From a virus: DNA of 64,000 nucleotides. The notes beneath the pieces are model-generated. The model was not told the DNA's origin, searched no databases, and saw only the letters and a program-made list of their open reading frames with translations. Below, piece after piece: positions 5,419 through 63,342 of this stretch; position 1 is the first letter of the stretch, and every line of letters starts with the position of its first letter. The stretch is taken from positions 17,860 to 81,859 of IMG/VR virus record IMGVR_UViG_3300005518_000002, one strand, 5' to 3'. Both the position numbers and the translations under genes were made by a program.

Positions 5419-5729
5419 TACCGATCACTCCTTGCATACGCCGTGGGCGCATAAGCCACGCAGTCCTGGCCGTCGTCCCGGATGGTGACCACCGACATGA
5501 TCGGACGTCCGGCACCGTTGAGCCGGACGTCCTCGGTGCCGATGTAGTCCTCGCGCTCCACAGCGACGACCCGGCAGTTCGTGCCCCGGCGGACCATGGG
5601 CGCGAGCAGCCCCTCCAGCCCGCGGCAGTCGTGGAACCGGTTGGGGCAGTCCCAGGGCGTGCGGGCGACCACCGGGCAGTTGGGGCACTCCCACTCGACC
5701 GGCGGCCGCTCGAATACCGGAATCTTCAT
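5418..5729 (-). CDS. Hypothetical Cys-containing protein
   Basis: 103 aa, CPNC...FHDC, coupled to downstream gene. Confidence 0.6.
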   Translation of the reverse strand: MKIPVFERPPVEWECPNCPVVARTPWDCPNRFHDCRGLEGLLAPMVRRGTNCRVVAVEREDYIGTEDVRLNGAGRPIMSVVTIRDDGQDCVAYAPTAYARSDR

Positions 5730-5733
5730 CGGA

Positions 5734-6432
5734 TCACGTCAGGGTGGTCGGGTTGCAGGCTTCGGTGGGCGGTGCCGTGGTGGTGATGTTCCACAGCCAG
5801 TGCTCCCCGGCGCCCAGCGTCTCGGACGTCGGGAGCCAGTTGGTACCGGTACCCGGTCCGTTCAGCCAGCCCGTGACCGCGGTGGTACTGCCTGCCCTCG
5901 TCTCGGACATGACCTGGAGCGTGGTCCGGCCGTTCTCGATGTCGTATCCGCCGAGCTTGCTGGAGCCGACGTTGGGCCAGGCGTTGTAGATATAGCGCTG
6001 CGCACCCGAGGCATCACAGGCACCGGAACCCGCGACCCGCTGCCAGACTTCGAGGGAGTACCGGTTGGTCGGCTGGCCCTCCGCGAAGGCGAAACCGGAT
6101 CCGGTGACCCCCGCCGCGCCCACGGTGAGTTCACGGGCGCTGGTGATGTACGCCGTGCCCGTCGTGTTGATCTCACAGAAGTCGATCGTCAGCTGCATGC
6201 GCTTGAGGACGGGGTCGTCCTTCTGGTTCACGCAGACGCTGCCGTCGGCCGTCCTCTCGAAGAACTCCTCGCCGTCCTCGTACTGCGGCTCCATGGAGAC
6301 CTTCACGAAGCCCTTGGACACGATGACCATGGACCCGGAACCGGTCACCGGGTTGCCACAGGTGTCCAGCTTGACGATGCGGTAGTGCGTGCCCTTGATC
6401 GGGGTTGCACACGCGGAAACAGTTGCGACCAT
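5734..6432 (-). CDS. Major tail protein
   Basis: RIVKLDTCG, GEEFFERTADGSVCV and YSLEVW motifs of actinophage major tail proteins. Confidence 0.75.
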   Translation of the reverse strand: MVATVSACATPIKGTHYRIVKLDTCGNPVTGSGSMVIVSKGFVKVSMEPQYEDGEEFFERTADGSVCVNQKDDPVLKRMQLTIDFCEINTTGTAYITSARELTVGAAGVTGSGFAFAEGQPTNRYSLEVWQRVAGSGACDASGAQRYIYNAWPNVGSSKLGGYDIENGRTTLQVMSETRAGSTTAVTGWLNGPGTGTNWLPTSETLGAGEHWLWNITTTAPPTEACNPTTLT

Positions 6433-35218: not shown

Positions 35219-35331
35219 AGGCCGGACAGGACACGACCCCGTGCCCCTGCGCGTGCAGTCCGGGAACCCGGTGCAGCTGCACCGGCTGTGTCTGCGAGGA
35301 GCACCACCCGGAGGAAACCGATGAGCGCTGA
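35215..35331 (+). CDS. 38-aa Cys-rich metallothionein-like peptide
   Basis: MKAGQDTTPCPCACSPGTRCSCTGCVCEEHHPEETDER (GTG start); overlaps both neighbours. Confidence 0.5.
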   Translation: MKAGQDTTPCPCACSPGTRCSCTGCVCEEHHPEETDER

Positions 35332-40416: not shown

Positions 40417-40519
40417 GCGATTTAGCAAAATCCCCGTATCATGGGTGGGGTAGCAGTACCCCACCCACTCACAGGTTCAAGCACTCACAGGTTCACAGGC
40501 TCACAGAAGAGGCAGGAAC

Positions 40520-41116
40520 ATGACCACTCAGGCAGACCCGTTCAGCACCCAGAAGCGCGAGGCCGACGAATTCCTCTCCGGTGGCGGCTCCACCATGATC
40601 GCGGCCAAGTGGCCCACCGTCGGTGCCGTCGTGGAGGGGACCATCACCGCGTGGGAGGGTCCCGTCCAGAAGACCGACATGGAGTCCGGGGAGCTCCTGT
40701 ACTTCGAGGCCAAGAAGATGGTCAAGGAGTCCGACCTGAGGGGCAACCCGGCCACCGCACGCAAGGCCATGGAGCTCCGCGTCGATCTCCAGTGCGAGGC
40801 GACCGGCATCACCTGGAAGACCAACCAGTACATCGAGGAAGAGGTTCCGGACGACGACGGCATGCGCCGCATGTACATCAGCGGAGCTCTCCAGAAGGCG
40901 TTCGCCGCAGCCAAGGAGGCCGCGGGCACCGACGGTGTTCCCGCGCCGCTGGAGACCGGAGCGTACGTGAAGATCACCCGGACCAAGTCGAAGAAGATGC
41001 CCAACGGGTTCTTCGCCTACACCTTCGAGGGTGAGTGGACCCCCGCCAAGCAGAACGCCAAGGCGGCGGACGGCTTCCTGAGTGACGACGCGGAAGAGAA
41101 CCCGTTCGCCGAGTAG
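40520..41116 (+). CDS. Single-stranded DNA-binding protein
   Basis: OB-like beta pattern, acidic tail DDAEENPFAE, follows exonuclease. Confidence 0.6.
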   Translation: MTTQADPFSTQKREADEFLSGGGSTMIAAKWPTVGAVVEGTITAWEGPVQKTDMESGELLYFEAKKMVKESDLRGNPATARKAMELRVDLQCEATGITWKTNQYIEEEVPDDDGMRRMYISGALQKAFAAAKEAAGTDGVPAPLETGAYVKITRTKSKKMPNGFFAYTFEGEWTPAKQNAKAADGFLSDDAEENPFAE

Positions 41117-41127
41117 TCCCCCATGCA

Positions 41128-41161
41128 GAAGGCCCCCGGGAATCTCTCCCGGGGGCCTTCT
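41128..41161. terminator. Bidirectional terminator
   Basis: AGAAGGCCCCCGGGA-ATCTC-TCCCGGGGGCCTTCT between convergent genes. Confidence 0.85.
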
Positions 41162-41181
41162 GTTGTGCGAGGTCTCGTGTA

Positions 41182-41325
41182 CTACTCGCTGGTCCTGCCC
41201 TCTTCGCCGCAGTGGCACTCATCGGTCGACTGAGCATCTGGGTGGTGCGCGGCCATGTGCTCCAGCATTTCCCCGAATCCCTCGGGGATACCGGCCTTCG
41301 TCAGCAACTTTTCCCAGATATCCAT
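41182..41325 (-). CDS. Small hypothetical protein
   Basis: 47 aa, GAAGGAGG RBS. Confidence 0.5.
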   Translation of the reverse strand: MDIWEKLLTKAGIPEGFGEMLEHMAAHHPDAQSTDECHCGEEGRTSE

Positions 41326-41357
41326 TACGTACCCTCCTTCAACAGCTGTGTGGAGCC

Positions 41358-41900
41358 TCAGGCAGCGTTCTGAGGACTCCGGGGCCGCAGTCCGGCACGG
41401 GTGGCCGGGGTCCAGTCCACCCGCTCCAGACGGGCCCGCTGAGCGGCAGGAAGAGGGAACGCAGGCTCCCCCGCCCAGTCCAGTCCGAGCCAGCGCAGCC
41501 AGGCCGCGTCGCACTCGTTGTCATCCGTGAACTCGACGCCGGAGCGCTTGTACGCAGCCATGATCATCGCTGCCTTGTCCCCTGTCCTGCCCAGCGCGTA
41601 CGCCTTGAGCGTGCTCGGGTTGACCTCCACATAGGGGAATCCCCGGCTCAGCAGCTCGACCCGCACGGCTCCGTGGACCATCGGGATCTGCCGGGCGGAG
41701 GCCCCCTTGAGACCGGCGCGGATGTCCTCCAGGATCACCAGGTCCGGCCAGGCGTCGAGCAGCGCGACCGCCAGATGATCGCGGATGTGCAGCAGACGGC
41801 CGTCTCCCCCGCCGTCCTTCGTCCTGATCAGTCCGGTGGAGCCGTCCGGATAGGCGAGCCCGGTGCGGGTGAGCGCAGCGTCTATTCCCATGATCTTCAT
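41358..41900 (-). CDS. ruvC: RuvC-like Holliday junction resolvase
   Basis: IMGID...TGLA, LVILED, VNPSTLKAYALG, DDNECDA. Confidence 0.85.
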   Translation of the reverse strand: MKIMGIDAALTRTGLAYPDGSTGLIRTKDGGGDGRLLHIRDHLAVALLDAWPDLVILEDIRAGLKGASARQIPMVHGAVRVELLSRGFPYVEVNPSTLKAYALGRTGDKAAMIMAAYKRSGVEFTDDNECDAAWLRWLGLDWAGEPAFPLPAAQRARLERVDWTPATRAGLRPRSPQNAA

Positions 41901-41996
41901 GTCGTTCCTCCGTGGTCTGTTTGATTAAATCAACCGTACCACCTAGGATGGAACAGGAGTGCATCGTGAACACCGACCAGATGATCAAGGAGTGGT

Positions 41997-42697
41997 ATGG
42001 CTCTCGACCCGGCGGCGAAACCCGCCTATGACGCTCTTGTGGAAGAACACAACGCTCTGCTGAAGGAAGTGGGACGCAGTCCCCTGACCCGCGCACAGCT
42101 GGCGGGGGTGCGCACCCAGCTCTCGTACGCCGCCCGCGGTTTCCGCATCACCTCTCTCATGGTTCCCCGCGAGGGAGAGAAGGGCGAGAACTTCTGGAGG
42201 GGCCTCGCGAGCATCCGTAAGAACCTGGCGGCCGCCCGCGCCGGACTGGAGGAGCGATGAGCTTCACCACAGGACAGCTCGGCATGAAGGCATACGAGAT
42301 CTACGTGGCCGAGGAGATCTCCCAGGAAGCGGCCTGTGCCCGGGTGGGCACAGGCCGCAACAACCTGCGCCGGGTACTGGAGATCATCCGGAACGACCCG
42401 AGCGAGGAACTGCTGCTCCAGCTGAAAGCCGGAGAGATCTCCCTGATGCAGGCACTGGCGGACAGCCGGAAGAACATGGACATCCCGGACCGGCTCAGTG
42501 TTCAGCAGATCCGCACCGCCATGGAGCGCTTCGTCGGATTCGACAGTGTGCGTGCCGAGTTCACCGACGCGCTGCTGCTCCGGGTGCCTGCCGATGAACT
42601 CGCGGAGTTCGAGCGCAGGCTGTGCGCCAGCCGCGCTGCCACCTGGAACCTGATCAACGCAATCCGGAAGACCAACGAACAGAGGATCACAGAATGA
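41997..42697 (+). CDS. Two hypothetical genes (41997-42260; 42257-42697, HTH-like)
   Basis: RBS, ATGA coupling; ISQEAACARVGTGRNNLRR. Confidence 0.6.
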
Positions 42698-43506
42698 GCG
42701 AGATCATGAAGGACGGCGAACTCCGGTTCGTCATCGAGCACCTGAGCGCCAACCTGCTCGAAGTCGACCCCGCCGTCCAGCGGGACATCAGCCAGGCCCG
42801 GGTGAAGAAGATCGCCAACAACTTCGCCGAGCACAGTCTCGGAGTCCTGGTCGTCTCCCGCCGGGGAGGCGTCACCTCGGAGCCCCGCTACGTCGTCCTG
42901 GACGGCCAGACCCGCCTGGAGGTGATCCGCCAGGTCGCCGGAACGGCGGAGACCACCATGCCCGTGCTGTGCCAGGTGTACCTCAACCTGAGCCGCAGGG
43001 AGGAGGCGGAGATCTTCCTCACGCACAACGACCGGGCCGCCGTGCGCAAGCTGGACGGCTTCCGGATCTCCCTGGTGGCGCAGGAGCAGTGGGCCGTGGA
43101 GATCAACGCCGTGGCCGACCGCTACGGCTACCACGTGAACAAGGACAAGGATCCCGGCCACCGGTTCCTGGCCGTGGGTGTCGCGGAGCGGCTGTACCGC
43201 GGGGAGCGGGGCCTGGACGTTCTCGACCGGACGTTCGACACGATCAACCGGGCCTGGAACCACACCCCCAACGCCGCTTCCGCGGAAGCGGTCATCGGAC
43301 TGGGGCTGCTCTACCAGCGCCACCCCGGGGACATCGACTTCAAGGGACTGGCGAGCAGGCTGGCCAAGGCAGGCAGCCCGCAGCAGTTCATGGGGGTCGT
43401 GGCTCAGCACCGGCACGCCCTGGGCATCACCATGCCCGAGGCTGCCTACCGGTACGCGGTCCAGCTGCACGACAAGGGCCGCAAGTCCCGCCGTCTGAGC
43501 GGCTGA
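42694..43506 (+). CDS. ParB/Srx-fold (DUF6551-like) protein
   Basis: VDPAVQRDIS..RVKKI, VVSRR, YVVLDGQTRL, EEAEIFL..N. Confidence 0.75.
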   Translation: MSEIMKDGELRFVIEHLSANLLEVDPAVQRDISQARVKKIANNFAEHSLGVLVVSRRGGVTSEPRYVVLDGQTRLEVIRQVAGTAETTMPVLCQVYLNLSRREEAEIFLTHNDRAAVRKLDGFRISLVAQEQWAVEINAVADRYGYHVNKDKDPGHRFLAVGVAERLYRGERGLDVLDRTFDTINRAWNHTPNAASAEAVIGLGLLYQRHPGDIDFKGLASRLAKAGSPQQFMGVVAQHRHALGITMPEAAYRYAVQLHDKGRKSRRLSG

Positions 43507-43583
43507 CGGACACGGGCGGGGGCCGTCGGGGCTCCCGCCCTGCCGTACGATCTAGCTCAACGACCACGGACTGAGGAGAACCA

Positions 43584-45218
43584 GTGAATACGAACACGCA
43601 GCTCCCCGGGGAGGACGATGCCGGGACCGAAGGTGTCTGGACCTTCACGGACCAGTACAACGAGACGTTCACCGTCACCGGGACGTTCCTGGGCGTGGGG
43701 TCCTCGCACCGGCCGCGCCACAAGGGTCATGAAGCGGGTACGTTCATCCCCCGCCGGGAGCACTGCTCCACGTGCCGCTGGACGGAGATCCGCATCTTCG
43801 TGGAGGCCGGGGAGCGCACCCGGTACGCCGTCGTCAACCGTGGCGTGTCCATCGTTCCCGGTGAACGGGAGCTGGTCACCTGCGAGAGGTTCACCACCGG
43901 ATTCTCCGTGGTGGAGGGTGTCACCACCCGCAAGACCCAGAGGGACGGCAGCCAGGTCGTTGCCCTGACCCTCCCGGCCGCCCGTGCGCTGGCGCAGGCG
44001 GCCGCCCATGACGAGAGCATCCGGGACGCGTACGTCAACCGGGCCACCGTCTGAGCACATCCGCACAACGACCAGGAGACCGACATGAACAGACCCTCCG
44101 TAACCACCTTCGCCGAAACCGCCGTCGTCTATGCCGTGATCGAAGGCCGTACGGACGAAGCCCGACGACTCCTCGGCAACATGCTGGACGACGAGCTGCG
44201 GGACTACCACCGCCAGGTCAGCACAGTTCTCGACCTGGTCAACGACGAAGGCAACGGACGTCGCCTGGAGGGCGGGTTCTGATGACCGACTTCCCCTGGA
44301 CGGATCCTCCCTGTACCTGCGAGGAGTGCCGTCCGGGGCCCGGCATCGACTACGCCAGCACGCACCTGAGCCGGATGCTGAACAGGCTGGACGAGGAGCG
44401 TGCCCAGCGGGCTGTGGAAATCACAGCATGGATCGACGGATGTCACGGCAACCCCGTGATCAAGAAGGAGCCCTCATGATGAAGCTCATCGGTTGCCTGG
44501 TGTTTCTCACCGCGCTAGCGCTGATCTTCCTGATAGCCACGAACAAGATCTGACCGTGGGCAGGCACCGCGCCGGGCCACCGGTCACACCACGCGCCGCG
44601 GAGGCTGTACCTCACCCTCCGCGGCGCGTACTGCGTCAGGAGTACGAGCGGCTGTACCGCTTCTACAAAGACCTCCAGCGGGAGCACAGTGCCCTTCTGG
44701 ACAGGCTGGAGCAGGACACCGAGGAGGTTCCCCTCCCCCTTCCGGCCGACTGAGAAATCGACCAAGGAGAACAGATCATGACCATCCGCTTCATCGCTGT
44801 GGCCGGGTACATCAACAAGGTCACAACGGACGGCCGCATCCTGGAACACACCCCGGATGTTCCCCTCGCTCCCGAGGACATGCTTTCACTGATGATCCAC
44901 GACCATTCCCGGGGTGAGCACGTCGGCCGGATCGACCGGGTGAGCCTGATCGGGGACCAGATCGTCCTGATCGGCATCCTCTTCGAGGACAGCTGGGCCA
45001 GGCCCTCCGTCGATGCGCTCCGCGCCGGTACGGACAGGCTCAATCTCGACGTCGGCTCCCGTAGTTCCAGCTGGGACTCGCGGGACTCCGGGAAGCCCTT
45101 CAAGACGTATGCCGAGGTGATGCGCATCCACGACTGGTGGATCCGGGCCGCACATGTCCACAGCAATCCCTGCTGGCCCCTCCCGGCGGCAGACGTCTGG
45201 GCGGACCCCGGATGCTGA
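43584..45218 (+). CDS. Run of hypothetical genes (43584-44054, 44085-44282, 44282-44479, 44476-44553, ~44556-44753, 44778-45218)
   Basis: RBS-led or coupled ORFs with GC3 bias. Confidence 0.6.
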
Positions 45219-45288
45219 CTGCCCCTCCCGCCACAGGGGGTTCTGCTGTTAAGGTAAATTGACCCGATTTACTGAAAGGGGTACCACC

Positions 45289-45540
45289 ATGACCACCACC
45301 AAGCGACCCAGGGGACGACCCCGTCCCATCGAGACGATCGAGCGGGACGAGAAGATCCTCAAGCTGCTCCAGCAGAGCGGATCGTTCACCCGCAATCAGA
45401 TCGCCGAAGCCCTGGGCCTGGACACCACCATCACCTACCTCTCCCTGGACCGGCTGCGCCGCCAGGGACGCGTCCGCAAGTGCGCGGGCACCGGCTCGAA
45501 CACCCTGTGGACGAGCGAGGCGAATGCCCCGTGCCCCTGA
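45289..45540 (+). CDS. Winged-HTH regulator with AT-hook-like RPRGRPR
   Basis: ILKLLQQSGSFTRNQIAEALGL...SLDRLRRQGRV. Confidence 0.7.
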   Translation: MTTTKRPRGRPRPIETIERDEKILKLLQQSGSFTRNQIAEALGLDTTITYLSLDRLRRQGRVRKCAGTGSNTLWTSEANAPCP

Positions 45541-45742
45541 TCACCGGACCTGCGGACGAGCAGGAAGAGGCGCTGGGACCGCGGGAGATCTGCGAGCTGG
45601 GAGAGATCTGCGTAAAGATGGCCCGGCAGCTGCGAGAAACGAGCGAGGCAGCGGCAGCCATCTTCAGATCGCTCCCCGCCGCGGGAGCCCTGCTGACGTC
45701 CCCGGACGCCATGCGCTGGACCCCCGGGGAAGGAGTTGCGCT

Positions 45743-46372
45743 GTGAGCGGTGACCGGCTCACCGTGGCTGTGTGCATCCCGACCATCGACGGCCGGGAGC
45801 GCATGCTGGCCAACGCCATGCGCACGGTAAGGATCCAGCGCCGCAAGCCCGACCAGATCCTGATCGAGCGGGACCGGGAAAGGACGGGCGCAGCAGCCAC
45901 ACGCAACCGGCTGCTGGCCCGGGTGGAGACCGACGTGATCGCCTGGCTCGACGATGATGACCTTCTGGAGCCGAACCACCTGATCGCCAACCTCCGGGTG
46001 CTCAAGGAGCGGCCGGAGGTCACACTCGTCTACCCCCGGCCGCGCATGGTCGGCGGGAAGGACCCCACGGCAGTGACTTACCAGGGACGGTTCCCGACCC
46101 CTCCCTGGGGCCTGCGCTGGTGCCCGGAGTTCGACAAGCACCTGAGGATGCGCGGCTCCTTCATCCCCATGACGCACCTCGTGCGCACGCAGGCGGTGCG
46201 CGACGCCGGAGGATTCCCGCCCGGTGAAGTCCTGCCGGACGGCCGGTACCGGGGTGAGGACGAGGCGTACCTGATCAGGCTTCTCGATCACGGCGCGGTG
46301 TTCGAGCACCTGGACGCGAAGACCTGGAAGTGGGTCGTGCACACCCGGCAAACCGCCGGACGGGGTGTATAA
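45743..46372 (+). CDS. GT2 glycosyltransferase
   Basis: VAVCIPT, GAAATRNR, WLDDDD, GEDEAY. Confidence 0.85.
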   Translation: MSGDRLTVAVCIPTIDGRERMLANAMRTVRIQRRKPDQILIERDRERTGAAATRNRLLARVETDVIAWLDDDDLLEPNHLIANLRVLKERPEVTLVYPRPRMVGGKDPTAVTYQGRFPTPPWGLRWCPEFDKHLRMRGSFIPMTHLVRTQAVRDAGGFPPGEVLPDGRYRGEDEAYLIRLLDHGAVFEHLDAKTWKWVVHTRQTAGRGV

Positions 46373-46625
46373 CTACCCGCGGATCAGGAGGAATCGGGCA
46401 ATGACCGTTTTGACCGATTCGTTAAACCACTCCCTGACCAGCGAAAACTCCTAGGAGAAGAGGGGCTGGGCCTCGTTGAGGGGTGGTTCTGGAAGGTCCG
46501 GAGAAGGGAACCTCCGGACTTTCCTACTCTACGGACCGGTAACCAGAGCGGATCAGTCCGTTCGGTTACGGATTAATTAAACAGGCATCCGTATAACGAT
46601 ACCTGCCGGACGAGGGAGAACGATC

Positions 46626-47027
46626 ATGGGAAACAACGGACGGACGTACCGGGGTGTGCCGGTTCCGAGCCGTCTGCGCGAGATCGAAGAGAAGGGCGAC
46701 CAGGATCATGATTTTTCCTACATGGGGTGGAAAGATGGCGTAGATGCAGCTTGGGCGGCGGGCATCCGCAATGAACCCGACCCTGGGCAAGGAGAACCGA
46801 CCATGACAGACCTACTCGAAGACAGCACCGATCCGCCCGAGAAGCGGGACAGTGAGGTACCGGCCGGGGCGGAAGTCGAAGCACTGTGCGCGGTGTTCAA
46901 CGAGAACGGGACCAGGGCCCGGGAGATCGTCAGGAGCATGCCCCGGCGGGACCGGGCGATCTTCACCTTCTGGCTGCTGGAGCTCACCAACATCATCGAC
47001 GAGATCCAGCTGGGTGACCGCTTGTAG
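46626..47027 (+). CDS. Hypothetical protein
   Basis: 133 aa, GAGGGAG RBS. Confidence 0.55.
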   Translation: MGNNGRTYRGVPVPSRLREIEEKGDQDHDFSYMGWKDGVDAAWAAGIRNEPDPGQGEPTMTDLLEDSTDPPEKRDSEVPAGAEVEALCAVFNENGTRAREIVRSMPRRDRAIFTFWLLELTNIIDEIQLGDRL

Positions 47028-47290
47028 GACAGGACACCCGGACAAGACAGGACAGGACACCAGGACACGGTGTCCTGTCCTGTCTTTGTCTTGTCTGCCC
47101 CCCTTGTCCAATGCGCCCCCGGGTGCGCCCGTACACCTGTCCGTGCGCCGTCCCGGGACAGGACATCCCGGCAGGACGCTCCTGGACAGGACACGGTGTG
47201 CCAGTCCACCTGGACAAATATGCCGCTGGACATGTCCAGTCAACGTCCTGGACAACCCCGGGTAATACAGCACTGGACAAGCGCGCTGGC
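47027..47290. repeat. GGACA/TGTCC repeat array with 18-bp perfect inverted repeat; candidate clt
   Basis: Dense GGACA copies; AAGACAGGACAGGACACC (47044-47061) / GGTGTCCTGTCCTGTCTT (47069-47086). Confidence 0.75.
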
Positions 47291-47344
47291 TGCCCCGTAC
47301 ATTGACTGGACCGATTAAAGAAAATCGACCAGGGAGGACAGGCC

Positions 47345-48445
47345 ATGCGAACCAGGACAGAGCGCAGGACACGGATGGTGTCCAGGACGGTGGGGGACAA
47401 GACACACCCCGTCTCCCAGGAGTACGAGGTCCAGGTCCCGGTTGTCCCGACAGACTGGGACGCCGTCGCGCTGTCCACTGTCCGGGCCGCGACCACCCTG
47501 TCCGTCCTGGGCGCCATGGCCTGGAGCACGGTGTCCATCGGGGACCTGCTGTCCATGGTGGCCCCGAGCTGGGTGGCGTACACCGTCGCCGGGGTCTTCG
47601 ACCTGGCCTGGATCGTCTGCATGATCCTTGAATGGCTGGGCCGCTACGACCCCGCCCGCGCACGCATTCCCCGCCGGGCTGGCTGGTCGGCCCTGGGCAT
47701 CAGCATGGTCCTCATCGCAGGTCACGGCTATGCATACGGCGTGCTCAACGGCCACGGACGGAGCTTCCTGGCTGTGGGCATCGGAGGTGCGCTGGTCTCC
47801 GCCATCGCGAAGAGCATGTGGTCGGTGGTCATGAACCACACGGCCGTGAAGCTCTCCGCGGAACACGAGGAATGGCTGGCGGCGGAGCGTGCAGAGACCG
47901 GCACGGAGCTGGCCCTGACGGCTGAGCGCCGCAGGCTCGCCCGGACACGGGACTCCATTGAAGCCGAGCGCCGCGCACTGGGGCAGGACACAACGCCGGA
48001 GCCGGACGTCCAGGACATCCGGCCGGAGCCGGACGGGACACTGTCCGCCTCCCTGGACACGGACAAGGAAAAGGCTGTCCGGGCACTCGCCAAGGCCATG
48101 GACATCCCCGTGGAGCTGTTCGGCCTGGACAGGACAGCCGGACAGGACACGGACAGCCGGACAGGACACGGACAGCCGGACAGGACACGGACAGCCGGAC
48201 AGGACGGCCGGACAGGACGGCCGGACAGGACACGGACAGTCGTCCCCCTGGACAGGACACGCAGTGTCTCGTCCTATGTCCTGTCCCTCCTGTCCGAAGC
48301 GCCGGACATGGACGGGACAGCGGTCAGGACAGCGGTCCGGCTCGAATTCCCGGGCGCTTCGGAAGACAGCATCGCCAAGGCGATCACCCGCACACGTCTG
48401 AAGATCAGGAACACCGAGAAGAGGGATGGAGAGAACCATGGCTGA
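47345..48445 (+). CDS. SpdB-like plasmid spread protein (4 TM + coiled coil + repeat linker + C-terminal HTH-like)
   Basis: AWSTVSIGDLL, AGVFDLAWIVC..LEWL.RYDP.RA..PRRAGW; linker built from GGACA repeats. Confidence 0.7.
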   Translation: MRTRTERRTRMVSRTVGDKTHPVSQEYEVQVPVVPTDWDAVALSTVRAATTLSVLGAMAWSTVSIGDLLSMVAPSWVAYTVAGVFDLAWIVCMILEWLGRYDPARARIPRRAGWSALGISMVLIAGHGYAYGVLNGHGRSFLAVGIGGALVSAIAKSMWSVVMNHTAVKLSAEHEEWLAAERAETGTELALTAERRRLARTRDSIEAERRALGQDTTPEPDVQDIRPEPDGTLSASLDTDKEKAVRALAKAMDIPVELFGLDRTAGQDTDSRTGHGQPDRTRTAGQDGRTGRPDRTRTVVPLDRTRSVSSYVLSLLSEAPDMDGTAVRTAVRLEFPGASEDSIAKAITRTRLKIRNTEKRDGENHG

Positions 48446-49043
48446 GCACAACGGCTGGCCGTCTGCGCCGGACTACCCGGCAGGCATGCAGCGTCCGGCG
48501 AACCGGACCACGCTGACCGCGGACGAAGCCACAGCACGGGGCACGGACGGATTCGGGCACCCTCTGGGACCCGACTCCACGTTCCCCAACGGCACCGGAG
48601 AGATCTTCCCCCCGGGCACCCGGGGCACGATGTCCTCGGGCAAGGGGGGAAAGCACAGCAACCTGCTGGATCTGATCAAGACCCTGGAGGACGGCGATCT
48701 GGGTGACCAGGTCGAGATGCACGCCTATGTCGAGGACGCACGCGCACTGTTCATGCGCATCGCAGTGATCATCGCACTGGCGTCCGGCGGGATGAAGGAA
48801 GACGCCAAGCGCAAGGCCCGGGAGTCCGCGGACGGCCGCATGACCCTCGGGGACAAGATCAAGCTGGCTGCCGCGCTGCGGAAGATCTCCCGCAAGTTCG
48901 GCGCGGCCGCCGACCACGCCGCTGACGCGGCCGCCGACATGGCAGCCTCCTGGCGGATCATGGAAAGCTGCCTGGACGATCTGGAGCAGGGAGCGGCAAA
49001 GCCGCAGGCCAAGCGCGGTTTCAACATCACTCGCGGTCGTTAG
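48438..49043 (+). CDS. TraA-like plasmid transfer protein
   Basis: Helical RKISRKFGAAADHAADAAADM region; located between spdB-like and traB. Confidence 0.55.
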   Translation: MAEHNGWPSAPDYPAGMQRPANRTTLTADEATARGTDGFGHPLGPDSTFPNGTGEIFPPGTRGTMSSGKGGKHSNLLDLIKTLEDGDLGDQVEMHAYVEDARALFMRIAVIIALASGGMKEDAKRKARESADGRMTLGDKIKLAAALRKISRKFGAAADHAADAAADMAASWRIMESCLDDLEQGAAKPQAKRGFNITRGR

Positions 49044-49046
49044 GGG

Positions 49047-51020
49047 GTGGCCAGGATGAGCATCAACTTCGGTGCACGATTCGGCTGGCTGATGGCTGAG
49101 AAAACGGCTCCCTTTTCGGCGCCGGTACTGCTCAGCCTGGCTGCTATGCCGCTTGCCGTTCTCGCCCACTGGGGCTGGGGGGACGATCCGGTCTGGATCG
49201 CTGTCCTGGCTGTGGTCTCCACGATCCTGACCGCCTCCACGTACTGGACCTGGGGCCGCCGCAGCCGGGAGAGCCAGCGGGTGGCCACGGTGTTCACCGC
49301 CCTGGTACTGGGCTGGATCACCTTCGCGGCCGCGTCCAGCCCCTTCAACTCCGGCATGGTCAGTGCCTGGCTGCTCGGAACCGTCGCTCTCGGCATCCTG
49401 TGGGGTATCCGGCACGCCGGTCTCAAGCCCTCCAGCGAGAACGACAAGCAGGTCAGCGAGCCCGACCCGCTGGGCGGTCGTGTGGGCGTGCTGAAGGGAG
49501 CCCGGACAAAGAAGATCAAGGGGGACGACGAAGCGGTGGAGGCACGGGTGCAGATGCCCCGGGGCGGAGCCACCGTGGCGGATGTCCAGGCAGCCCGGGA
49601 CACCATCGCTTCGGCCGTCAGCATGGGGACGGACCAGGTCACCGTCCGGCCGGTCAAGGGACGTGCGGACCAGGTTGACCTGGCCTTCACCCAGCCCGTG
49701 GACATGGACAAAGTCCTGGCCTGGACAGGTCCGTCCCACCCCGGGAAGTCCATCGCGGATGCCCCGATCCGTCTGGGCTACCGCATGAACGGCAGCGAGA
49801 TCGCCTGGTGGCTGGTCGGGTCGGGAGACCCCGCCAACCCCCGGGTGCTGTCCCACACGCTGTGCACCGGCATGACCGGCTCCGGGAAGACGGAGACGAT
49901 CTGCACGGCGATCATCGAGATGCGCTCCCGCACGGACATCGTGCCGATCGTGGGAGACCCCGCCAAGTTCGCGCAGAGCTTCGGGGACATCGCGGACTGC
50001 CTGGAGATCGCGGCCAAGACCCCGGCCGAGGTCAAAAAGCTGATCAAGAACCTGCCGGACGCCGTGGTCTACCGTGCCGGGCTGCTGGGCACCCTGACCA
50101 GGGCAAACGGCCAGGTCGGGTACAAGGAGTGGATCCCGGAGTGCTACACCCTGCACGGGATCCCGGCAGTGTTCATCGACATCGAGGAAGCGGCCGACGT
50201 CGCCGATCTGATCGCTGATGAGCTGGACGAAGCAGTGCGCAAGCTCCGCTCCATAGGCATCCACCTCTGCATCTCGATGCAGACCGCACCGCACGACAAC
50301 ATGGCGCGCAAGACCCGCGGGCAGTTCGGCCAGTCGCTGGCCCACGGGTGCCAGGAAGCCCAGGATGCCAAGTACTCCCTGAACTCGAACACTCTCGACG
50401 CAGGGGCGGACCCCACCAAGTGGGGCAACGAATCCCCCGGCTCGCTGTATGCGGAGCTGGTCGGCACGGACAAGCTGCACTGGTCCGTGGACGGCAAGGT
50501 GCTCGCCACGACGTACGAGCAGAAGCGCACGTCGATCAGGGACACGAAGCGGTACTGGGCACACCTGGACGCCGGGACGAAGCAGATCCTCGGCCGGGGG
50601 ATCATCCTCCAGGACGAGCAGTTCCTGGCCGCGCTGCCGAGCGTTCCGGCCGACAGGGAAGTACCCGAAGAGGATGTGAGGCGGGACCTACACGCGGTCC
50701 CGACCGACGAAGGAGTGGTGGATGTGACACAGGAACTTCAGCCTCCGGTAGGTCCCCGGGTGGCCTTCGGGTCGCCCGAGCGTGACCGGATGAGCACCGA
50801 GGATGCACGTGCGCTGATCGAGGGAAGGATCGACGATCTGGAAGCCGGGGGCCGCGATTCGGTGGGCTTCGGAGACCTCGAAGATCTCGCCGCAGTGACC
50901 GGCCGCCAGCGCACCTGGATCTACCAGGAGCTGACACGGCTGGTAAAGGAGGGACGCCTGGTGGAGGGAACGAAGCCCCCGTACGCCATCAAGAGGCGTT
51001 CCGAGACAGCTGTCAGCTGA
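49047..51020 (+). CDS. traB: TraB-type FtsK/SpoIIIE conjugative DNA translocase
   Basis: N-terminal TMs, WTGPSHPGKSIADAPIRLG, Walker A GMTGSGKT, IDIEEA, RSIGIHLCISMQ, AGADPTKWGN, C-terminal wHTH (RQRTWIYQELTRL..EGRL). Confidence 0.85.
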   Translation: MARMSINFGARFGWLMAEKTAPFSAPVLLSLAAMPLAVLAHWGWGDDPVWIAVLAVVSTILTASTYWTWGRRSRESQRVATVFTALVLGWITFAAASSPFNSGMVSAWLLGTVALGILWGIRHAGLKPSSENDKQVSEPDPLGGRVGVLKGARTKKIKGDDEAVEARVQMPRGGATVADVQAARDTIASAVSMGTDQVTVRPVKGRADQVDLAFTQPVDMDKVLAWTGPSHPGKSIADAPIRLGYRMNGSEIAWWLVGSGDPANPRVLSHTLCTGMTGSGKTETICTAIIEMRSRTDIVPIVGDPAKFAQSFGDIADCLEIAAKTPAEVKKLIKNLPDAVVYRAGLLGTLTRANGQVGYKEWIPECYTLHGIPAVFIDIEEAADVADLIADELDEAVRKLRSIGIHLCISMQTAPHDNMARKTRGQFGQSLAHGCQEAQDAKYSLNSNTLDAGADPTKWGNESPGSLYAELVGTDKLHWSVDGKVLATTYEQKRTSIRDTKRYWAHLDAGTKQILGRGIILQDEQFLAALPSVPADREVPEEDVRRDLHAVPTDEGVVDVTQELQPPVGPRVAFGSPERDRMSTEDARALIEGRIDDLEAGGRDSVGFGDLEDLAAVTGRQRTWIYQELTRLVKEGRLVEGTKPPYAIKRRSETAVS

Positions 51021-51125
51021 CAGTGTCAGACAGTGTCAGAAAGGCTGTCAGAAGCCGTGTCAAAGGCTCCTGACAGCCCCTCTGGCCTAAGACTCTCCCC
51101 GCCTGACACGATCACGTGTCAGGAA
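51010..51125. repeat. TGTCAG/CTGACA repeat cluster at 3' end of traB
   Basis: CTGTCAGCTGACAGTGTCAGACAGTGTCAGAAAGGCTGTCAGAAGCCGTGTCAAAGGCTCCTGACAG. Confidence 0.75.
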
Positions 51126-51155
51126 CACTGAACACAGAGAAACGGAAAGATCATC

Positions 51156-51365
51156 ATGACTCGTATCCTTGCCCGCTGGACGGCGGAGATCGTCGTCTTT
51201 GTGGGTGCCCTCATAGAGATCTACTTGTTCGCCAGCCTGCTCCCCGGGGACAGTGTCGATCTCCCTGTCGGCGGCACCCTGGTGACCATGCTCCTGATCG
51301 GAGCAGTCACCGCCGCTGTCGCCATTCCGCTCTGGTCGCACGGCCGCAAGCGCGACCGTGCCTAG
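51156..51365 (+). CDS. Small two-TM protein (Spd-like)
   Basis: 69 aa, hydrophobic, directly after traB. Confidence 0.55.
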   Translation: MTRILARWTAEIVVFVGALIEIYLFASLLPGDSVDLPVGGTLVTMLLIGAVTAAVAIPLWSHGRKRDRA

Positions 51366-51469
51366 GCATCACCACGGGCGCCGGGGACACCGTCGCCGTC
51401 ACAGCGGGAACGGAGACCTGATCTTCTGGGTCGGCCTGTTCCTCACCATCGTCTGGATCGCGGACCACT

Positions 51470-51862
51470 ATGGAAAATGAGATCGAGCGGCGGCAGCGCC
51501 TCGGGGAACTCACCGAGTACCTGCGGACGCAGCCGCTCACGAACACAGACCAGGGACAGCACGTCCACATCCACTACCACCAGGCGCCCGCCAGTACAGC
51601 GCCGGTCGACCAGAACCCGGGACAGAGCGTCCTGGACAAGTACACCCCGTACTTCATCCTGCTCCTGGCGGGGTGCGTGATCCTCGCGATCGTCGCGGTG
51701 ATCGCCGTCATCCTCCTGCCCATGGTCGTGACCATGCTGATCGCCGTTGCGGTCTGCCTGGGCGCGGTCGCCGTGCTGGCGCTGGCCGTCAGCGGCTCGC
51801 TGCGCAATATGCGGCTCCAGAAAATGGATGAAACCCTCCTGAAGAAAGTGATCAAAAAGTGA
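51470..51862 (+). CDS. SpdD-like membrane protein
   Basis: QHVHIHYHQAP followed by ~45 hydrophobic residues. Confidence 0.55.
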   Translation: MENEIERRQRLGELTEYLRTQPLTNTDQGQHVHIHYHQAPASTAPVDQNPGQSVLDKYTPYFILLLAGCVILAIVAVIAVILLPMVVTMLIAVAVCLGAVAVLALAVSGSLRNMRLQKMDETLLKKVIKK

Positions 51863-54519: not shown

Positions 54520-54586
54520 GCGTGTTGTGAGCCGCTTGGCGCAGGGTGTACTGTTTAACTAAACAACTGAAACAGACCAGGGACCA

Positions 54587-55345: not shown

Positions 55346-57295
55346 ATGGCCAGGGACAAGTACCGGCACCGGACCGAGGACCGGGGGCGCGGCATCGTCG
55401 CCGTCTTCTCGGAGGGTCCGAGCAGCGAGGTGAACGCGGTCGACCGCGAAGGCCGGTCCTTCGCCAAGCGGGAGCTGACGTTCGAGCCGGGGCTGACCGG
55501 CAGGCCGGTTTCGGGCGGCGGCCGGTTCTACGACCATGGCGCCATGTACGAGGCGCAGCAGATCTTCGTCACGAAGAAGCTCACCCCGAGGGAGGACTGA
55601 TCATGGCACGTAAAACCGACTACCCCACAGGCAATCCGAACGGCATGTCGTTCATCTGCAACAGGTGGGTGTTCACCGGTCCGCAGGGCTACCGCGTCCA
55701 GAAGCAGGGCGACAAGTGGAGCGTCGTCTCGTACACCGCGAACGACACGCGTCCGGTGTCCAGCGGTGCCCGGATGACCGAGGACGACGCGCACGCGCTG
55801 GCAGCCGAGCTGGCCGGAGGTCACTGACCATGCCGATTCGCGATGTCCTCCAGGCAGCCCTCCGTCGGCTCAGCTGGTCTCAGCACGAGATCGACACGGC
55901 GCTGACCGAGCTCCAGGAGGACGTACTGACGGACCCCACGCTGTCCGACCACACGGCCTACCGGGAACTGGCGGACGCAGTGGTGGAGCAGATCGGCTGG
56001 CTCTCCGGGGACGGGGACAGCTGGGACGGCGACGACGACGAACTGACCATCCTGAAGAACTGGCTCACGGTCTCCGGGAAGTGGCTGCCGGAGATGTACG
56101 CACACCTGACTGCGGAGAAGATCAGGTTCTGCTGCAACTGCCTCGCGGGAGCGGGCTCGTGCGATGCGGCGGCCGACCGGATCGACCCGTGGCTCTCCAG
56201 CACGGAGCACGAGAGCTGGGGAACTCTGGTCCGGAAGTCGGACGGCACCGAAGTGCCCTGGAAAATCATGAACGCCGTGGAAGTCCTGAGGAACAAGGAG
56301 AAGTGACCATGAAGAAGACGATCACCATCCGGCTCACGCTGGACAACATCGAGACCGCACTGAAGCCGGGCGACGTGTTCGCCGACGACCCCGAGTTCGG
56401 GGCTGTCCGGTCCGCCCGCAAGCACGCCAACGGCACGGACGCCATGGTGTACACCGACAAGGGCAGCCGGGACTCCCTCGGCCTGCCGCAGACCGTGCGC
56501 GTGATCCGGGAGACCTGATCATGGAGAAGAAGCTGTACCTCGTGGGGGTTTCGCAGGGGGCTCCGGTGAGCGTCCTCGGCCCGTACCAGGAGAGCGAGCT
56601 CCGTCCGCTCATGACCGGCCGCAGGCAGCTGGAGGACGCGGGAGCCGACGAAGGCGTCTACCGGGCGCGGGCGCTCAGCGCCGAGGAAGCGCTGGCGCAG
56701 GTCGAGCGGGACCTGAGGGAAGGGAACTGATCATGGGACAGCGGGAACGGCTGGAAGCGCTGCGCAAGGACGCGAATGATCCGACACTTGAGGCCGGAGA
56801 CCTCGTGTTCTGCCGGGGCATCTACGCCAAGGTTCGGATGATCAGGGAACACAAGCCGGGTACACACTCGTGGTCACCGATCAAGAACGAAATGACGGCC
56901 CGGGAGATCGTGACAGACCTCGGCTCACGGTGGTTCGGACGCTGAGAGACCGGTCGGGTGCAGGGGCTGACGTCCCTGCACCCCCTCAGGCCGTCAGCCT
57001 GGAACAAGATCACAGACCAGCACGAGGAGAGATCATGGAAAAGGGATACACCGTCGTCCAGGTCACGGACCTGGCCCCCGGGGACCGGATCGCGCAGGTG
57101 TTCCCCGTCAGGGAACGCGGCATCGTCCGCAAGGGGGAGCGGGTGGTGAAGATCCTGGACGTCCAGCCGGAGACGGTTGAGCGCTGGGGCGAGAAGCTTC
57201 CGGTCTGCCGCGTCCTCGGTATCGACCCTGATCAGGGGGACGGGGTCGTGAAGTGGCTGGCCGTGCCGTCCCGCCGGTACGTCGTCGTCCGCTGA
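55346..57295 (+). CDS. Small early genes (55346-55600, 55603-55827, 55830-56306, 56309-56518, 56521-56730, 56733-56945, 57035-57295)
   Basis: Tightly packed ORFs with GGAG RBS and TGA-NN-ATG junctions. Confidence 0.65.
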
Positions 57296-57297
57296 CT

Positions 57298-57326
57298 GAG
57301 GGGCCCTTCGGGGCCCCTTCTTCCTT
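57298..57326 (+). terminator. Intrinsic terminator
   Basis: GAGGGGCCC-TTCG-GGGCCCCTTC followed by TTCCTT. Confidence 0.8.
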
Positions 57327-57415
57327 AAAAATCACGGTTTATTTTTAAAGCCCCAGGTCAGGGCGTTGATCGAAACTTTACAACGAGCCGGATTAGCTGT
57401 TTACTTAAAGCAGAA
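57327..57415 (+). promoter_or_regulatory. AT-rich promoter region
   Basis: UP-like AT tract, TTTACA...TACTT spacing, overlapping CTGTTTACTTAAA box. Confidence 0.6.
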
Positions 57416-57419
57416 CAAC

Positions 57420-57800
57420 AAAACAGCACGACCGAGCCACCGGGGGTCCAATCCCCCCGGAGCCCGGGGAAGATCGGGAAGAGGACGCTACGGTCAGCCT
57501 CACCGGATCACCCCACAGGGGCAGCGGATCGGGAGTCGAGATCTTCTCCTCCCCCGCAGGATCGGAGCCCGGAACATAACCGGGCGGGTCACGCAGCAGA
57601 CCTCAAGCGCTCGTCGCAGCTGGAGACAGGCACCGGACCTCCGCAAAACCGGTAGACGAACCGAGTAGGAGATCGGGCGCGGCTGGCATGAGGGTCAGTC
57701 ACCGTACCTCCCAAAGGACGAGTCGGAAGCACCGGCCAGCAACGGCGTAAGGGCAGCGAGCTACAGACTGCATCTCACGGGGCCGCCGGTGACGCACTAC
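57420..57800 (+). ncRNA. Candidate long structured RNA
   Basis: No credible ORF; stems GGGGAAGATC/GATCTTCTCC, GCCCGG/CCGGGC, GTCACCG/CGGTGAC. Confidence 0.5.
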
Positions 57801-57806
57801 ACACGA

Positions 57807-57884
57807 CCCTCCGCTCACAGTCGAAGTCCAGATATGACCCCGCACTGGAGTGACTGCCCGTTCGAGTCGGGCCCGGAGGGACCA
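57807..57884 (+). ncRNA. tRNA-like element lacking D-arm and anticodon, ending ACCA
   Basis: CCCTCCG/CGGAGGG acceptor; T-arm GCCCG-TTCGAGT-CGGGC; inner stems CAGTC/GACTG and TCCAG/CTGGA. Confidence 0.65.
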
Positions 57885-57922: not shown

Positions 57923-58126
57923 ATGATGGAATTCCCCCTCGGCACGCCGGTCGCCTACAAGGGGTCCGAGCGGTGGCCCAGCGCCATCGCTGCTGTGGTC
58001 GTCGAGCCCTTCATCGTGAACGGCCAGACCGACCCCGAGCGCGTGATCATCGACTGCGGGCCGACCCGGTACGCCGCTCCTTACGACCGGGACACCCGGA
58101 TCGTCTGGACCGACCAGCTGACCTGA
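57923..58126 (+). CDS. Small SH3-like hypothetical protein
   Basis: 67 aa, AAGGAG RBS. Confidence 0.65.
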   Translation: MMEFPLGTPVAYKGSERWPSAIAAVVVEPFIVNGQTDPERVIIDCGPTRYAAPYDRDTRIVWTDQLT

Positions 58127-58146
58127 TCATCGCTATCCCCCGATAA

Positions 58147-58205
58147 GGCGAAACCGGCGCGAGCCGGTCGGCCGGAGATCACCTCCCGGTCCTGACGAGC
58201 CAGGT
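58147..58205 (+). ncRNA. Type II hammerhead ribozyme
   Basis: GGC-GAAA-CCGGC(GCGA)GCCGG-UC^-GGCCGG..CCGGUC-CUGACGA-GCC; all core nucleotides present; ACCU/AGGU pseudoknot possible. Confidence 0.9.
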
Positions 58206-58231
58206 CAGTCCAACTGAATGACGGAGAGATC

Positions 58232-58740
58232 ATGGACAAGGACATCACCGTCCGGCGGCACTCGGCCGTCCCCGGCCTCAAGGACGTCCACCTGAAGGCC
58301 CAGCCCGCCTACACCTTCACCTACCGCGGAGAAAACTACTCCGCGGCCTACGACCGGCTGAGCGAGATGTGGAGCGTCAGCTGGGTGAGCTCGCCCGACG
58401 GTGCGACGCACCCCATGGCTGTGCGCTCCTCGCTGGAGCAGGCCGTGCGAGACGCCATGAGCGATGTGGACCTGATCGCCCGGCACCTCCCCAAGGTGCC
58501 CCAGACCACGACCCGGGAGAACTGACCATGCGTGACCTGACCGAGCCGGTCGACTGGCAAGTGCTCATCAGTCACCCAGCCTCACGGACTGAGTACCAGG
58601 AGGCCGAGACCAGCAGGGGCACAGTGGCCCGGGTGACCGAGGACGGGCACGAAGTCGTCTCCCCCAGCGGTGACACCGAGCAGGTGCGGCGGCAGTACAA
58701 CGGCCGGGTTCAGGCGTACCTGAAGTCCTACGGTCTGTAA
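58232..58740 (+). CDS. Two small early genes (58232-58525, 58528-58740)
   Basis: RBS-led ORFs. Confidence 0.65.
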
Positions 58741-58804: not shown

Positions 58805-58875
58805 GCCTCCATGGGGTAATGGATGCCCGCCGGGTTCTCAGCCCGGAGATGCCGGATCGTGACCGGCTGGAGGTA
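58805..58875 (+). tRNA. Atypical tRNA-Glu(CUC)
   Basis: GCCTCCA/TGGAGGT acceptor; D GGGT-AATGGAT-GCCC; AC CCGGG-TTCTCAG-CCCGG; T GCCGG-ATCGTGA-CCGGC. Confidence 0.75.
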
Positions 58876-58916
58876 CGCAGGAACGACCAACTGAACAGGA
58901 CCACAGGGAGATCGCT

Positions 58917-59206: not shown

Positions 59207-59344
59207 CCCTCTGTCCGGATGGAACGGGCCGCGACCGCCTCGGGCGGGGAAGCCGGTCCGGACGGAGGCCATGCCGGGGATATCCAGCGGGTGCTCGCGT
59301 GATCAGCACGCCCCCGGGGGTTCGAGTCCCCCGCCCGGTACGCA
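59207..59344 (+). ncRNA. 12-bp hairpin ending CCA followed by second D-arm-less tRNA-like element
   Basis: CCTCTGTCCGGA/TCCGGACGGAGG-CCA; then GCCGGG.../GGGGG-TTCGAGT-CCCCC-GCCCGGT. Confidence 0.55.
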
Positions 59345-62143: not shown

Positions 62144-62214
62144 GCCTCCATGGGGTAACGGATGCCCGCCAGGCTTTCAATCTGGAGATGCCGGATCATG
62201 ACCGGCTGGAGGTA
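62144..62214 (+). tRNA. Atypical tRNA-Glu(UUC)
   Basis: Same body as 58805-58875; AC arm CCAGG-CTTTCAA-TCTGG; T-loop ATCATGA. Confidence 0.75.
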
Positions 62215-63270: not shown

Positions 63271-63342
63271 GCCCCTGTAGCTCAGCCGGAAGAGCGGCCG
63301 CTTTAAAACCGGCACGCACAGGTTCGAATCCTGTCGGGGGCA
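63271..63342 (+). tRNA. tRNA with UAA anticodon (Leu/bldA-type), short variable loop
   Basis: GCCCCTG/CGGGGGC; GCTC/GAGC; AC GCCGC-TTTAAAA-CCGGC (C.C mismatch at loop base); ACAGG-TTCGAAT-CCTGT; A73. Confidence 0.8.

Follow-up and report, generated by a model that had tools for sequence, protein, structure and literature searches.

Results

Genomic setting of the locus

The 64-kb window, by which we mean the whole stretch of DNA analyzed, makes up the right-hand part of a virus record that is complete at 81,859 bp and bears direct terminal repeats. The phage genome has a G+C content of 65 to 68%, and its large terminase is nearest to that of Streptomyces phage mu1/6 (47% identity). Near-identical DNA occurs in rhizosphere and soil metagenomes, and the source is an uncultured, high-GC soil phage of about 82 kb and of the Streptomyces type. 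The locus is framed by two genes of unknown function on the + strand, an upstream gene of 67 amino acids (57923 to 58126; GC3 of 0.91) and a downstream gene of 97 amino acids (58232 to 58525; GC3 of 0.93). Because the genome as a whole is 66% GC, these GC3 values make both open reading frames look like real genes. Neither protein matched anything in Pfam or PHROGs or, by tblastn, among cultured phages, and their only relatives among viral contigs belong to a single strain that is 99.6% identical. The Atlas search returned hypothetical proteins only, and megablast of the 4-kb region against cultured phages gave no match.

Between the two genes and on the same strand lies an RNA element that starts 19 nt past the stop codon of the 67-aa gene and ends 22 nt ahead of the start of the 97-aa gene. 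The surrounding genes are co-oriented and closely packed, and a consensus scan found neither terminator-like nor promoter-like sites between these two. Farther upstream, a strong terminator-like hairpin lies at 57300 to 57326, directly past the stop of the gene at 57035 to 57295; its sequence is GGGGCCC-UUCG-GGGCCCC, and a U-rich run comes next. After the hairpin comes an unusually AT-rich stretch, then a noncoding leader of about 500 nt, and then the genes. The region from 57300 to 57420 probably marks the boundary of an operon and contains a promoter missed by the consensus scan. Elsewhere in the window, an 896-aa helicase (35288 to 37978; ResIII and Helicase_C) carries Hint and LAGLIDADG homing-endonuclease domains within residues 49 to 304 and thus probably contains an intein.

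The intergenic element is a type II hammerhead ribozyme

The first-pass annotation had proposed a type II hammerhead ribozyme between two small genes, and both the placement and the identity were borne out. The Rfam search that it had suggested as a check matched RF02276 (Hammerhead_II) at 58146 to 58209 on the + strand, scoring 39.3 bits where the gathering score is 37. In cmscan, the alignment runs end to end over model positions 1 to 66, with an E-value of 1.8e-4 for the whole window against all 4227 Rfam families and of 5.2e-8 for RF02276 alone against the whole 81.9-kb genome. The margin over the gathering score is small (2.3 bits); we attribute the low score to a loop I without UGG/GGU and to an ACCU/AGGU pseudoknot of just 4 bp. 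No other ribozyme was matched by Rfam, even at E-values up to 1.

The catalytic core could be read directly where it had been claimed, as GAAA (58150 to 58153), GUC (58167 to 58169), and CUGACGA (58192 to 58198), and the three stems likewise form with standard pairs adjoining the core, 3 bp in stem II and 6 bp each in stems III and I. The 5′ strand of stem II, GGC (58147 to 58149), pairs with GCC (58199 to 58201), with C58149-G58199 as the 11.1-10.1 pair. It is followed by G12, A13, and A14 of the core (58150 to 58152) and by the stem III hairpin (58153 to 58168), in which A15.1-U16.1 and five further pairs join 58153 to 58158 with 58163 to 58168 beneath a GNRA loop, GCGA (58159 to 58162). According to the core alignment, the predicted scissile bond lies after C58169 (C17) and before G58170 (N1.1). 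Stem I (58170 to 58191) consists of 6 bp, formed by 58170 to 58175 and 58186 to 58191, and a 10-nt loop region; the CUGACGA strand then supplies C3, U4, G5, A6, C7, G8, and A9. The letters of the pseudoknot that had been noted as possible are also present, with ACCU in loop I (58181 to 58184) able to pair with AGGU in the 3′ tail (58202 to 58205). All 13 core positions are canonical, as are the core-adjacent pairs G58199-C58149, G58170-C58191, and A58153-U58168, and H17 is C58169. Loops close stems I and III while stem II is open, and the strands run in the order II-III-I-II, which is the type II topology.

To this we added a descriptor of our own, consisting of the core and minimum lengths of 2 bp for stem II and 4 bp each for stems III and I. 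Applied to both strands of the window, it found exactly one site, which is the ribozyme at 58146 to 58209, while 200 dinucleotide-preserving shuffles yielded 0.005 sites per shuffle and none with equally long stems. The motif is a genuine type II hammerhead, in which every testable feature of RF02276 was found.

The hammerhead secondary structure has a predicted energy of −25.1 kcal/mol versus −28.3 for the minimum free energy fold, with the pseudoknot uncounted in both. The latter fold retains stems I and III and replaces stem II by a 5-bp hairpin between CUGAC (58192 to 58196, core C3 to N7) and GUCAG (58204 to 58208). This hairpin masks part of the core and of the tail and excludes both stem II and the pseudoknot, so that, judged by secondary structure, an inactive fold is favored by about 3 kcal/mol. 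The 22 other copies aligned below do not conserve this hairpin. That a plain minimum free energy prediction misses the hammerhead fold is expected, because the pseudoknot and the tertiary contacts lie outside the folding model.

Further copies occur in related uncultured phages

A search with the terminase recovered 29 related viral-contig loci, including two identical fragments and three weak partial matches, the remainder being 55 to 71% identical. We scanned the whole records of 25 of these 29 loci with RF02276 and found that two complete genomes, G004 and G013, contain two strong copies each (66.2 and 61.4 bits in G004; 52.6 and 48.7 bits in G013). The copies in both genomes begin 1 to 15 nt past a stop codon, and those of G004 end 14 to 18 nt before the next start. 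The genes that flank them have no homology to the flanking genes of the window. The G013 copies occupy the same broad region as the copy in the window, between an Spd-like gene and a tRNA cluster, and the G004 copies lie in a 4.3-kb insert elsewhere in the genome. Within one genome, the two copies are 92 to 98% identical over only 78 to 81 nt, and they are 1160 nt (G004) or 600 nt (G013) apart.

Both genomes also have repeated gene leaders of their own. The leader GACCAAGGAAYCGAGGAA..AUG occurs three times in G004, twice fused to a hammerhead tail and once without a hammerhead, and GAUACGGACACAGGAGCCGAUCAUG occurs three times in G013, once directly after a hammerhead. Downstream of both G013 hammerheads, a match to the tRNA model extends over 137 nt (5610 to 5746 on the − strand of the scanned piece L160; 41.2 bits), about twice the normal tRNA length, which points to a tRNA interrupted by an intron or a large insertion.

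In the near-identical strain of the window phage, the ribozyme is identical, with 28 differing sites nearby. The contigs of four soil or rhizosphere runs showed no variant within the ribozyme, which carries no weight given 13 variant sites in 2 kb. A separate, low-depth metagenome contig of 172 nt aligns to 58146 to 58204 only (59 nt), with two mismatches and three gaps; judged from this alignment, it may represent a close copy of the ribozyme in another genome of the same rhizosphere sample.

Cultured Streptomyces phages carry arrays of hammerheads

When the 76-nt region was compared with cultured phages by blastn, 33 Streptomyces phage records matched, among them Daudau, Diane, Salutena, Alvy, Thestral, and phiScoe1. 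The best matches are 80 to 86% identical over about 58 nt, and the matches listed have no feature or just a hypothetical protein underneath. One Daudau copy that passes the Rfam cutoff is 86% identical over 57 nt, and over its first 26 nt, which take in stem III with its loop, the window's element does not differ from a Salutena copy (L162:6002-6063) that is itself above the cutoff. Whole-genome cmscan identified 9 type II hammerheads in Daudau (NC_054668) and 12 in Salutena (NC_054657), of which 8 and 11, respectively, pass the cutoff. They are found at almost every boundary between the small early genes (38715 to 50602 in Daudau; 39716 to 51772 in Salutena), all on the gene strand and nearly all intergenic, in gaps or at their edges. 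They follow shortly after a stop codon and usually precede the next annotated start by 10 to 42 nt; three Daudau copies overlap that start. The few annotated coding sequence starts that overlap a ribozyme, such as those of Daudau gp82, gp74, and gp60, may be miscalled. Neither of the two records examined, those of Daudau and Salutena, annotates a hammerhead. We found no paper on hammerheads in Streptomyces phages in the literature searched, and the Rfam full alignment or subscription journals may already list them.

Stems and pseudoknot covary among homologs

For the stems, we aligned 23 copies from this phage, G004, G013, Daudau, and Salutena. The core is invariant, including G12, A13, and A14 and the CUGACGA strand except for N7, and H17 is always C. 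In stems I and III, which together have 12 pairs, 96.7% of the cells are paired, as compared to 70.5% in shuffles and at most 52% when the strands are slid. Changes on both sides were seen in 10 of these 12 pairs, comprising all six pairs of stem I and four of stem III, and none of 500 shuffles reached the observed values. In the middle of stem II, 19 copies have a G-C pair and 4 a C-G pair.

To evaluate the pseudoknot, we used a CCGG-anchored pattern to gather at least 112 distinct type II hammerheads from viruses, 60 of those listed having a 3-bp stem II. Among the matches listed, 95 of 112 share the 10-nt stem I spacing of the window's element. We defined the register K as the loop position plus the tail index counted from 10.1. 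In the 60 listed members with a 3-bp stem II, the K = 12 register is 85 to 92% paired at four positions, by GC, CG, AU, and UA types, and pairing in the neighboring registers is far lower. The ACCU/AGGU pairing falls exactly in K = 12, as does the GGUC/GACC pairing of the relative G004, so the pairing proposed in the first-pass annotation lies in the register that dominates and covaries among the listed members with a 3-bp stem II. Four or more pairs between loop I and the nucleotides just past stem II are the majority feature in Perreault et al. 2011. The window's pseudoknot has 4 bp and is without the fifth pair, between loop position 5 and tail position 7, found in 88% of the comparable listed members. 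An alternative pairing of GAUC (58177 to 58180) with GGUC (58203 to 58206) was rejected as weaker and as lying in the K = 9 register, which the family does not use. Compensatory change thus extends to every stem and to the pseudoknot, and RNA pairing is clearly under selection.

The hammerhead adjoins a repeated gene leader

The hammerhead ends 1 nt before a standard gene leader (58211 to 58228, + strand) that consists of the 8-mer CAACUGAA (58211 to 58218) and the Shine-Dalgarno sequence GGAGAG (58223 to 58228). The 8-mer, CAACTGAA in the DNA, occurs nine times on the + strand of the genome, at window positions 54564, 57894, 58211, 58888, 62222, and 62473 and at genome positions 1851, 2270, and 3029, while neither the − strand nor a reversed control gave a single copy. 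Each copy lies 15 to 27 nt ahead of an ATG, just before a GGAG-type Shine-Dalgarno sequence. The 8-mer is a shared gene leader that might act as a translation enhancer, a protein site, or a phage promoter element. Four of the nine copies follow an RNA element by 1 to 11 nt, the elements being a tRNA-like sequence, the hammerhead, and two tRNA-Glu. We discarded the 8-mer as a general mark of processing elements, since it precedes nine genes and just four copies adjoin an RNA element.

Several tRNA genes share this part of the genome. Rfam matched tRNAs at 62144 to 62214 and 63271 to 63342. A tRNA-Glu(CUC) at 58805 to 58876 and a 90-nt tRNA-Ala(AGC) at 59252 to 59341 were called by ARAGORN only and had no Rfam tRNA match even at E-values up to 1. 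In addition, a tRNA-like 3′ half (57807 to 57884) ends the noncoding leader of about 500 nt. It has a 7-bp acceptor-like helix (57807 to 57813 with 57874 to 57880) and a T-arm-like hairpin, GCCCG-UUCGAGU-CGGGC (57856 to 57872), followed by ACCA. Neither ARAGORN nor Rfam (at E-values up to 1) called it, and its fold is no better than that of shuffled sequences.

Discussion

We consider it probable that the element is a functional type II hammerhead within a + strand operon of small genes and that it cuts the polycistronic RNA after C58169, thereby uncoupling the cistrons. Hammerheads cleave by internal transesterification, which leaves a 2′,3′-cyclic phosphate and a 5′-OH. By this established chemistry, cleavage after C58169 would most likely produce the same ends. 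We infer that the operon is transcribed through the site, and stems III and I would fold while the polycistronic RNA is being made. The CUGACGA strand, the 3-bp stem II, and the ACCU/AGGU pseudoknot would then dock stems I and II, and the RNA would cut itself after C58169 by internal transesterification. The products would be expected to separate, because just the 3-bp stem II joins them. The upstream message, which carries the 67-aa gene, would end in the GNRA-capped stem III hairpin and UC with the 2′,3′-cyclic phosphate. The downstream message, with the 97-aa gene and the later genes, would begin with a 5′-OH on the base-paired G58170 and acquire a fixed leader of 62 nt, made up of stem I, the core strand, the tail, the CAACUGAA leader, and the Shine-Dalgarno sequence. 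Cleavage would in this way leave the phage's standard CAACUGAA-SD-AUG unit intact.

The likely purpose of such a cut is to uncouple the stability and translation of neighboring cistrons, which would make the element a natural ribozyme insulator. The 81.9-kb genome has one hammerhead copy and so does not show the clustered, gene-bracketing arrangement of prophage hammerheads, although pairs are present in G004 and G013. A single copy cannot release a gene by cuts on either side of it, and a circular RNA or retrozyme-like reading was rejected on the same ground. Perreault et al. 2011 (PMC3088659) showed fast cleavage by type II hammerheads with this pseudoknot and proposed this same mRNA-processing role where hammerheads border variable genes of prophages. 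A 2019 review (PMC6765202) describes the biological role of bacterial and phage hammerheads as still largely elusive and lists mRNA processing as unproven. The product of the glmS ribozyme decays in a 5′-OH–dependent manner (Collins et al. 2007, as cited in PMC6765202), and by analogy the 5′-OH end could have a destabilizing effect in an actinomycete with RNase J.

This last possibility bears on a different reading of the locus, in which the ribozyme is real and cleavage lowers or times the expression of the 97-aa gene instead of stabilizing its message. It might do so through RNase J attack on the 5′-OH product, through pairing of the freed stem II and tail with the Shine-Dalgarno sequence and AUG, or through a CUGAC/GUCAG hairpin that makes cleavage conditional. 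The better energy of the inactive fold, by 3 kcal/mol on secondary structure, speaks for such control, as does the glmS precedent for 5′-OH–dependent decay cited in PMC6765202; moreover, CCAGGUC (58200 to 58206) in the 3′ product can pair with GAUC-AUGG at the start codon, and UCC with the GGA of the Shine-Dalgarno sequence. However, the leader hairpin is no more stable than those of shuffled sequences (z = −0.71; 36 of 200 shuffles fold as well), and neither it nor the core-masking hairpin is conserved among the 23 homologs, so that both were rejected. The product should also hinder a 5′ exonuclease by its base-paired 5′ end, and we regard this reading as unlikely. The repeated leader invites another explanation, that the conserved CAACTGAA leader holds a separate promoter for every small gene and the hammerhead merely trims upstream read-through as a minor insulator, rather than processing a true polycistronic message. 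The nine + strand–only copies, always 15 to 27 nt before an ATG, and the end of the hammerhead 1 nt short of one of them are consistent with this. Yet CAACTGAA is unlike any sigma-70-type promoter, the promoter scan was empty, and a transcript begun past CAACTGAA, so near the Shine-Dalgarno sequence, would have almost no leader. The genes are, in addition, packed and co-oriented behind one terminator-like hairpin and the AT-rich stretch at 57300 to 57420, and we find promoters in the individual leaders very unlikely.

Two further readings deny the cleavage itself or its importance. A chance look-alike or a decayed, inactive relic would fit a score barely over the Rfam cutoff, a short pseudoknot, and a sole copy in the genome, but it is hard to reconcile with 13 of 13 canonical core positions and canonical core-adjacent pairs, with the expectation of 0.005 descriptor sites per shuffled window, with the 26-nt identity to the Salutena copy and the 86% identity over 57 nt to the Daudau copy, both above the cutoff, or with a ribozyme unchanged in a second strain that differs at 28 nearby sites. 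We judge it even less probable than the promoter explanation. Least credible to us is that the element matters mainly as DNA, as an intergenic repeat that promotes cassette recombination or shuffling between phages, with cleavage being incidental. The flanking genes are indeed nonhomologous among the three related phages, the copies within a genome are near-identical over only 78 to 81 nt, and the 172-nt metagenome contig holds an almost identical copy, though just 59 nt of the contig align. In contrast, every stem and the pseudoknot show compensatory change, a clear sign of selection on RNA pairing, and a single copy leaves no partner for recombination within this genome.

Our preferred reading, a self-cleaving insulator between cistrons, can be extended to a broader and distinctly doubtful conjecture, to which we give slightly less credence than to the lowering or timing of expression. 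The hammerhead, the tRNAs, and the tRNA-like 3′ half would be interchangeable "cut here" modules before CAACUGAA-SD-AUG, processing rather than promoters would set the 5′ ends of the mRNAs, and a phage or host factor would recognize the conserved leader only once processing had taken place. If true, the modules would amount to a programmed grammar of mRNA maturation, in which a ribozyme replaces an RNase P or RNase Z site.

Among known systems, the arrangement recalls RiboJ, an engineered hammerhead derived from a satellite RNA, with an added hairpin, that serves as a synthetic ribozyme insulator. In both cases, a self-cleaving hammerhead just before the ribosome-binding site trims, or in the phage would trim, the upstream RNA and leaves a fixed, hairpin-capped 5′ leader; RiboJ is engineered, whereas the phage element is natural, of type II, and docked by a pseudoknot. 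A second parallel is the tRNA punctuation of phage and organelle transcripts by RNase P and RNase Z, since the tRNA genes of the operon also lie between small genes and the hammerhead takes the same slot before the standard leader. tRNA processing, however, yields 5′-phosphate and 3′-OH ends, while a hammerhead needs no host enzyme and would yield 5′-OH and cyclic-phosphate ends. The glmS ribozyme, too, is a bacterial self-cleaving RNA in an mRNA leader, and its 5′-OH product decides the fate of the message; in contrast to glmS, which requires a metabolite cofactor and precedes a single particular gene, the phage hammerhead showed neither a ligand site nor a link to a given gene.

The type II hammerheads (RF02276) of Perreault et al. 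2011 share with the present element the core, the permuted topology with a short open stem II, the pseudoknot between loop I and the 3′ tail, and the setting between variable small phage genes on the same strand. They differ from it in that its loop I is without the common UGG/GGU and that it occurs as one copy and not as a flanking pair or cluster. The site therefore adds one well-formed member to a class known in phages since 2011 and leaves existing knowledge unchanged. Its practical value lies in its nearest relatives, the cultured Streptomyces phages with 9 to 12 copies each, unannotated in the two records examined. Their hosts include S. lividans JI 1326, for Alvy and Triumph, and S. xanthochromogenes, for Daudau and Thestral; such tractable phage-host pairs would allow a direct test of ribozyme cutting and of its effect on the stability and translation of neighboring cistrons, a role that has been called elusive (PMC6765202). 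The arrays of these Arquatrovirinae phages, as seen in Daudau and Salutena, are the closest in sequence to the window's hammerhead and have the same placement after a stop codon, but they comprise 9 to 12 copies in the early arm, whereas the window phage belongs to another group, with a terminase near that of mu1/6, and carries a single copy.
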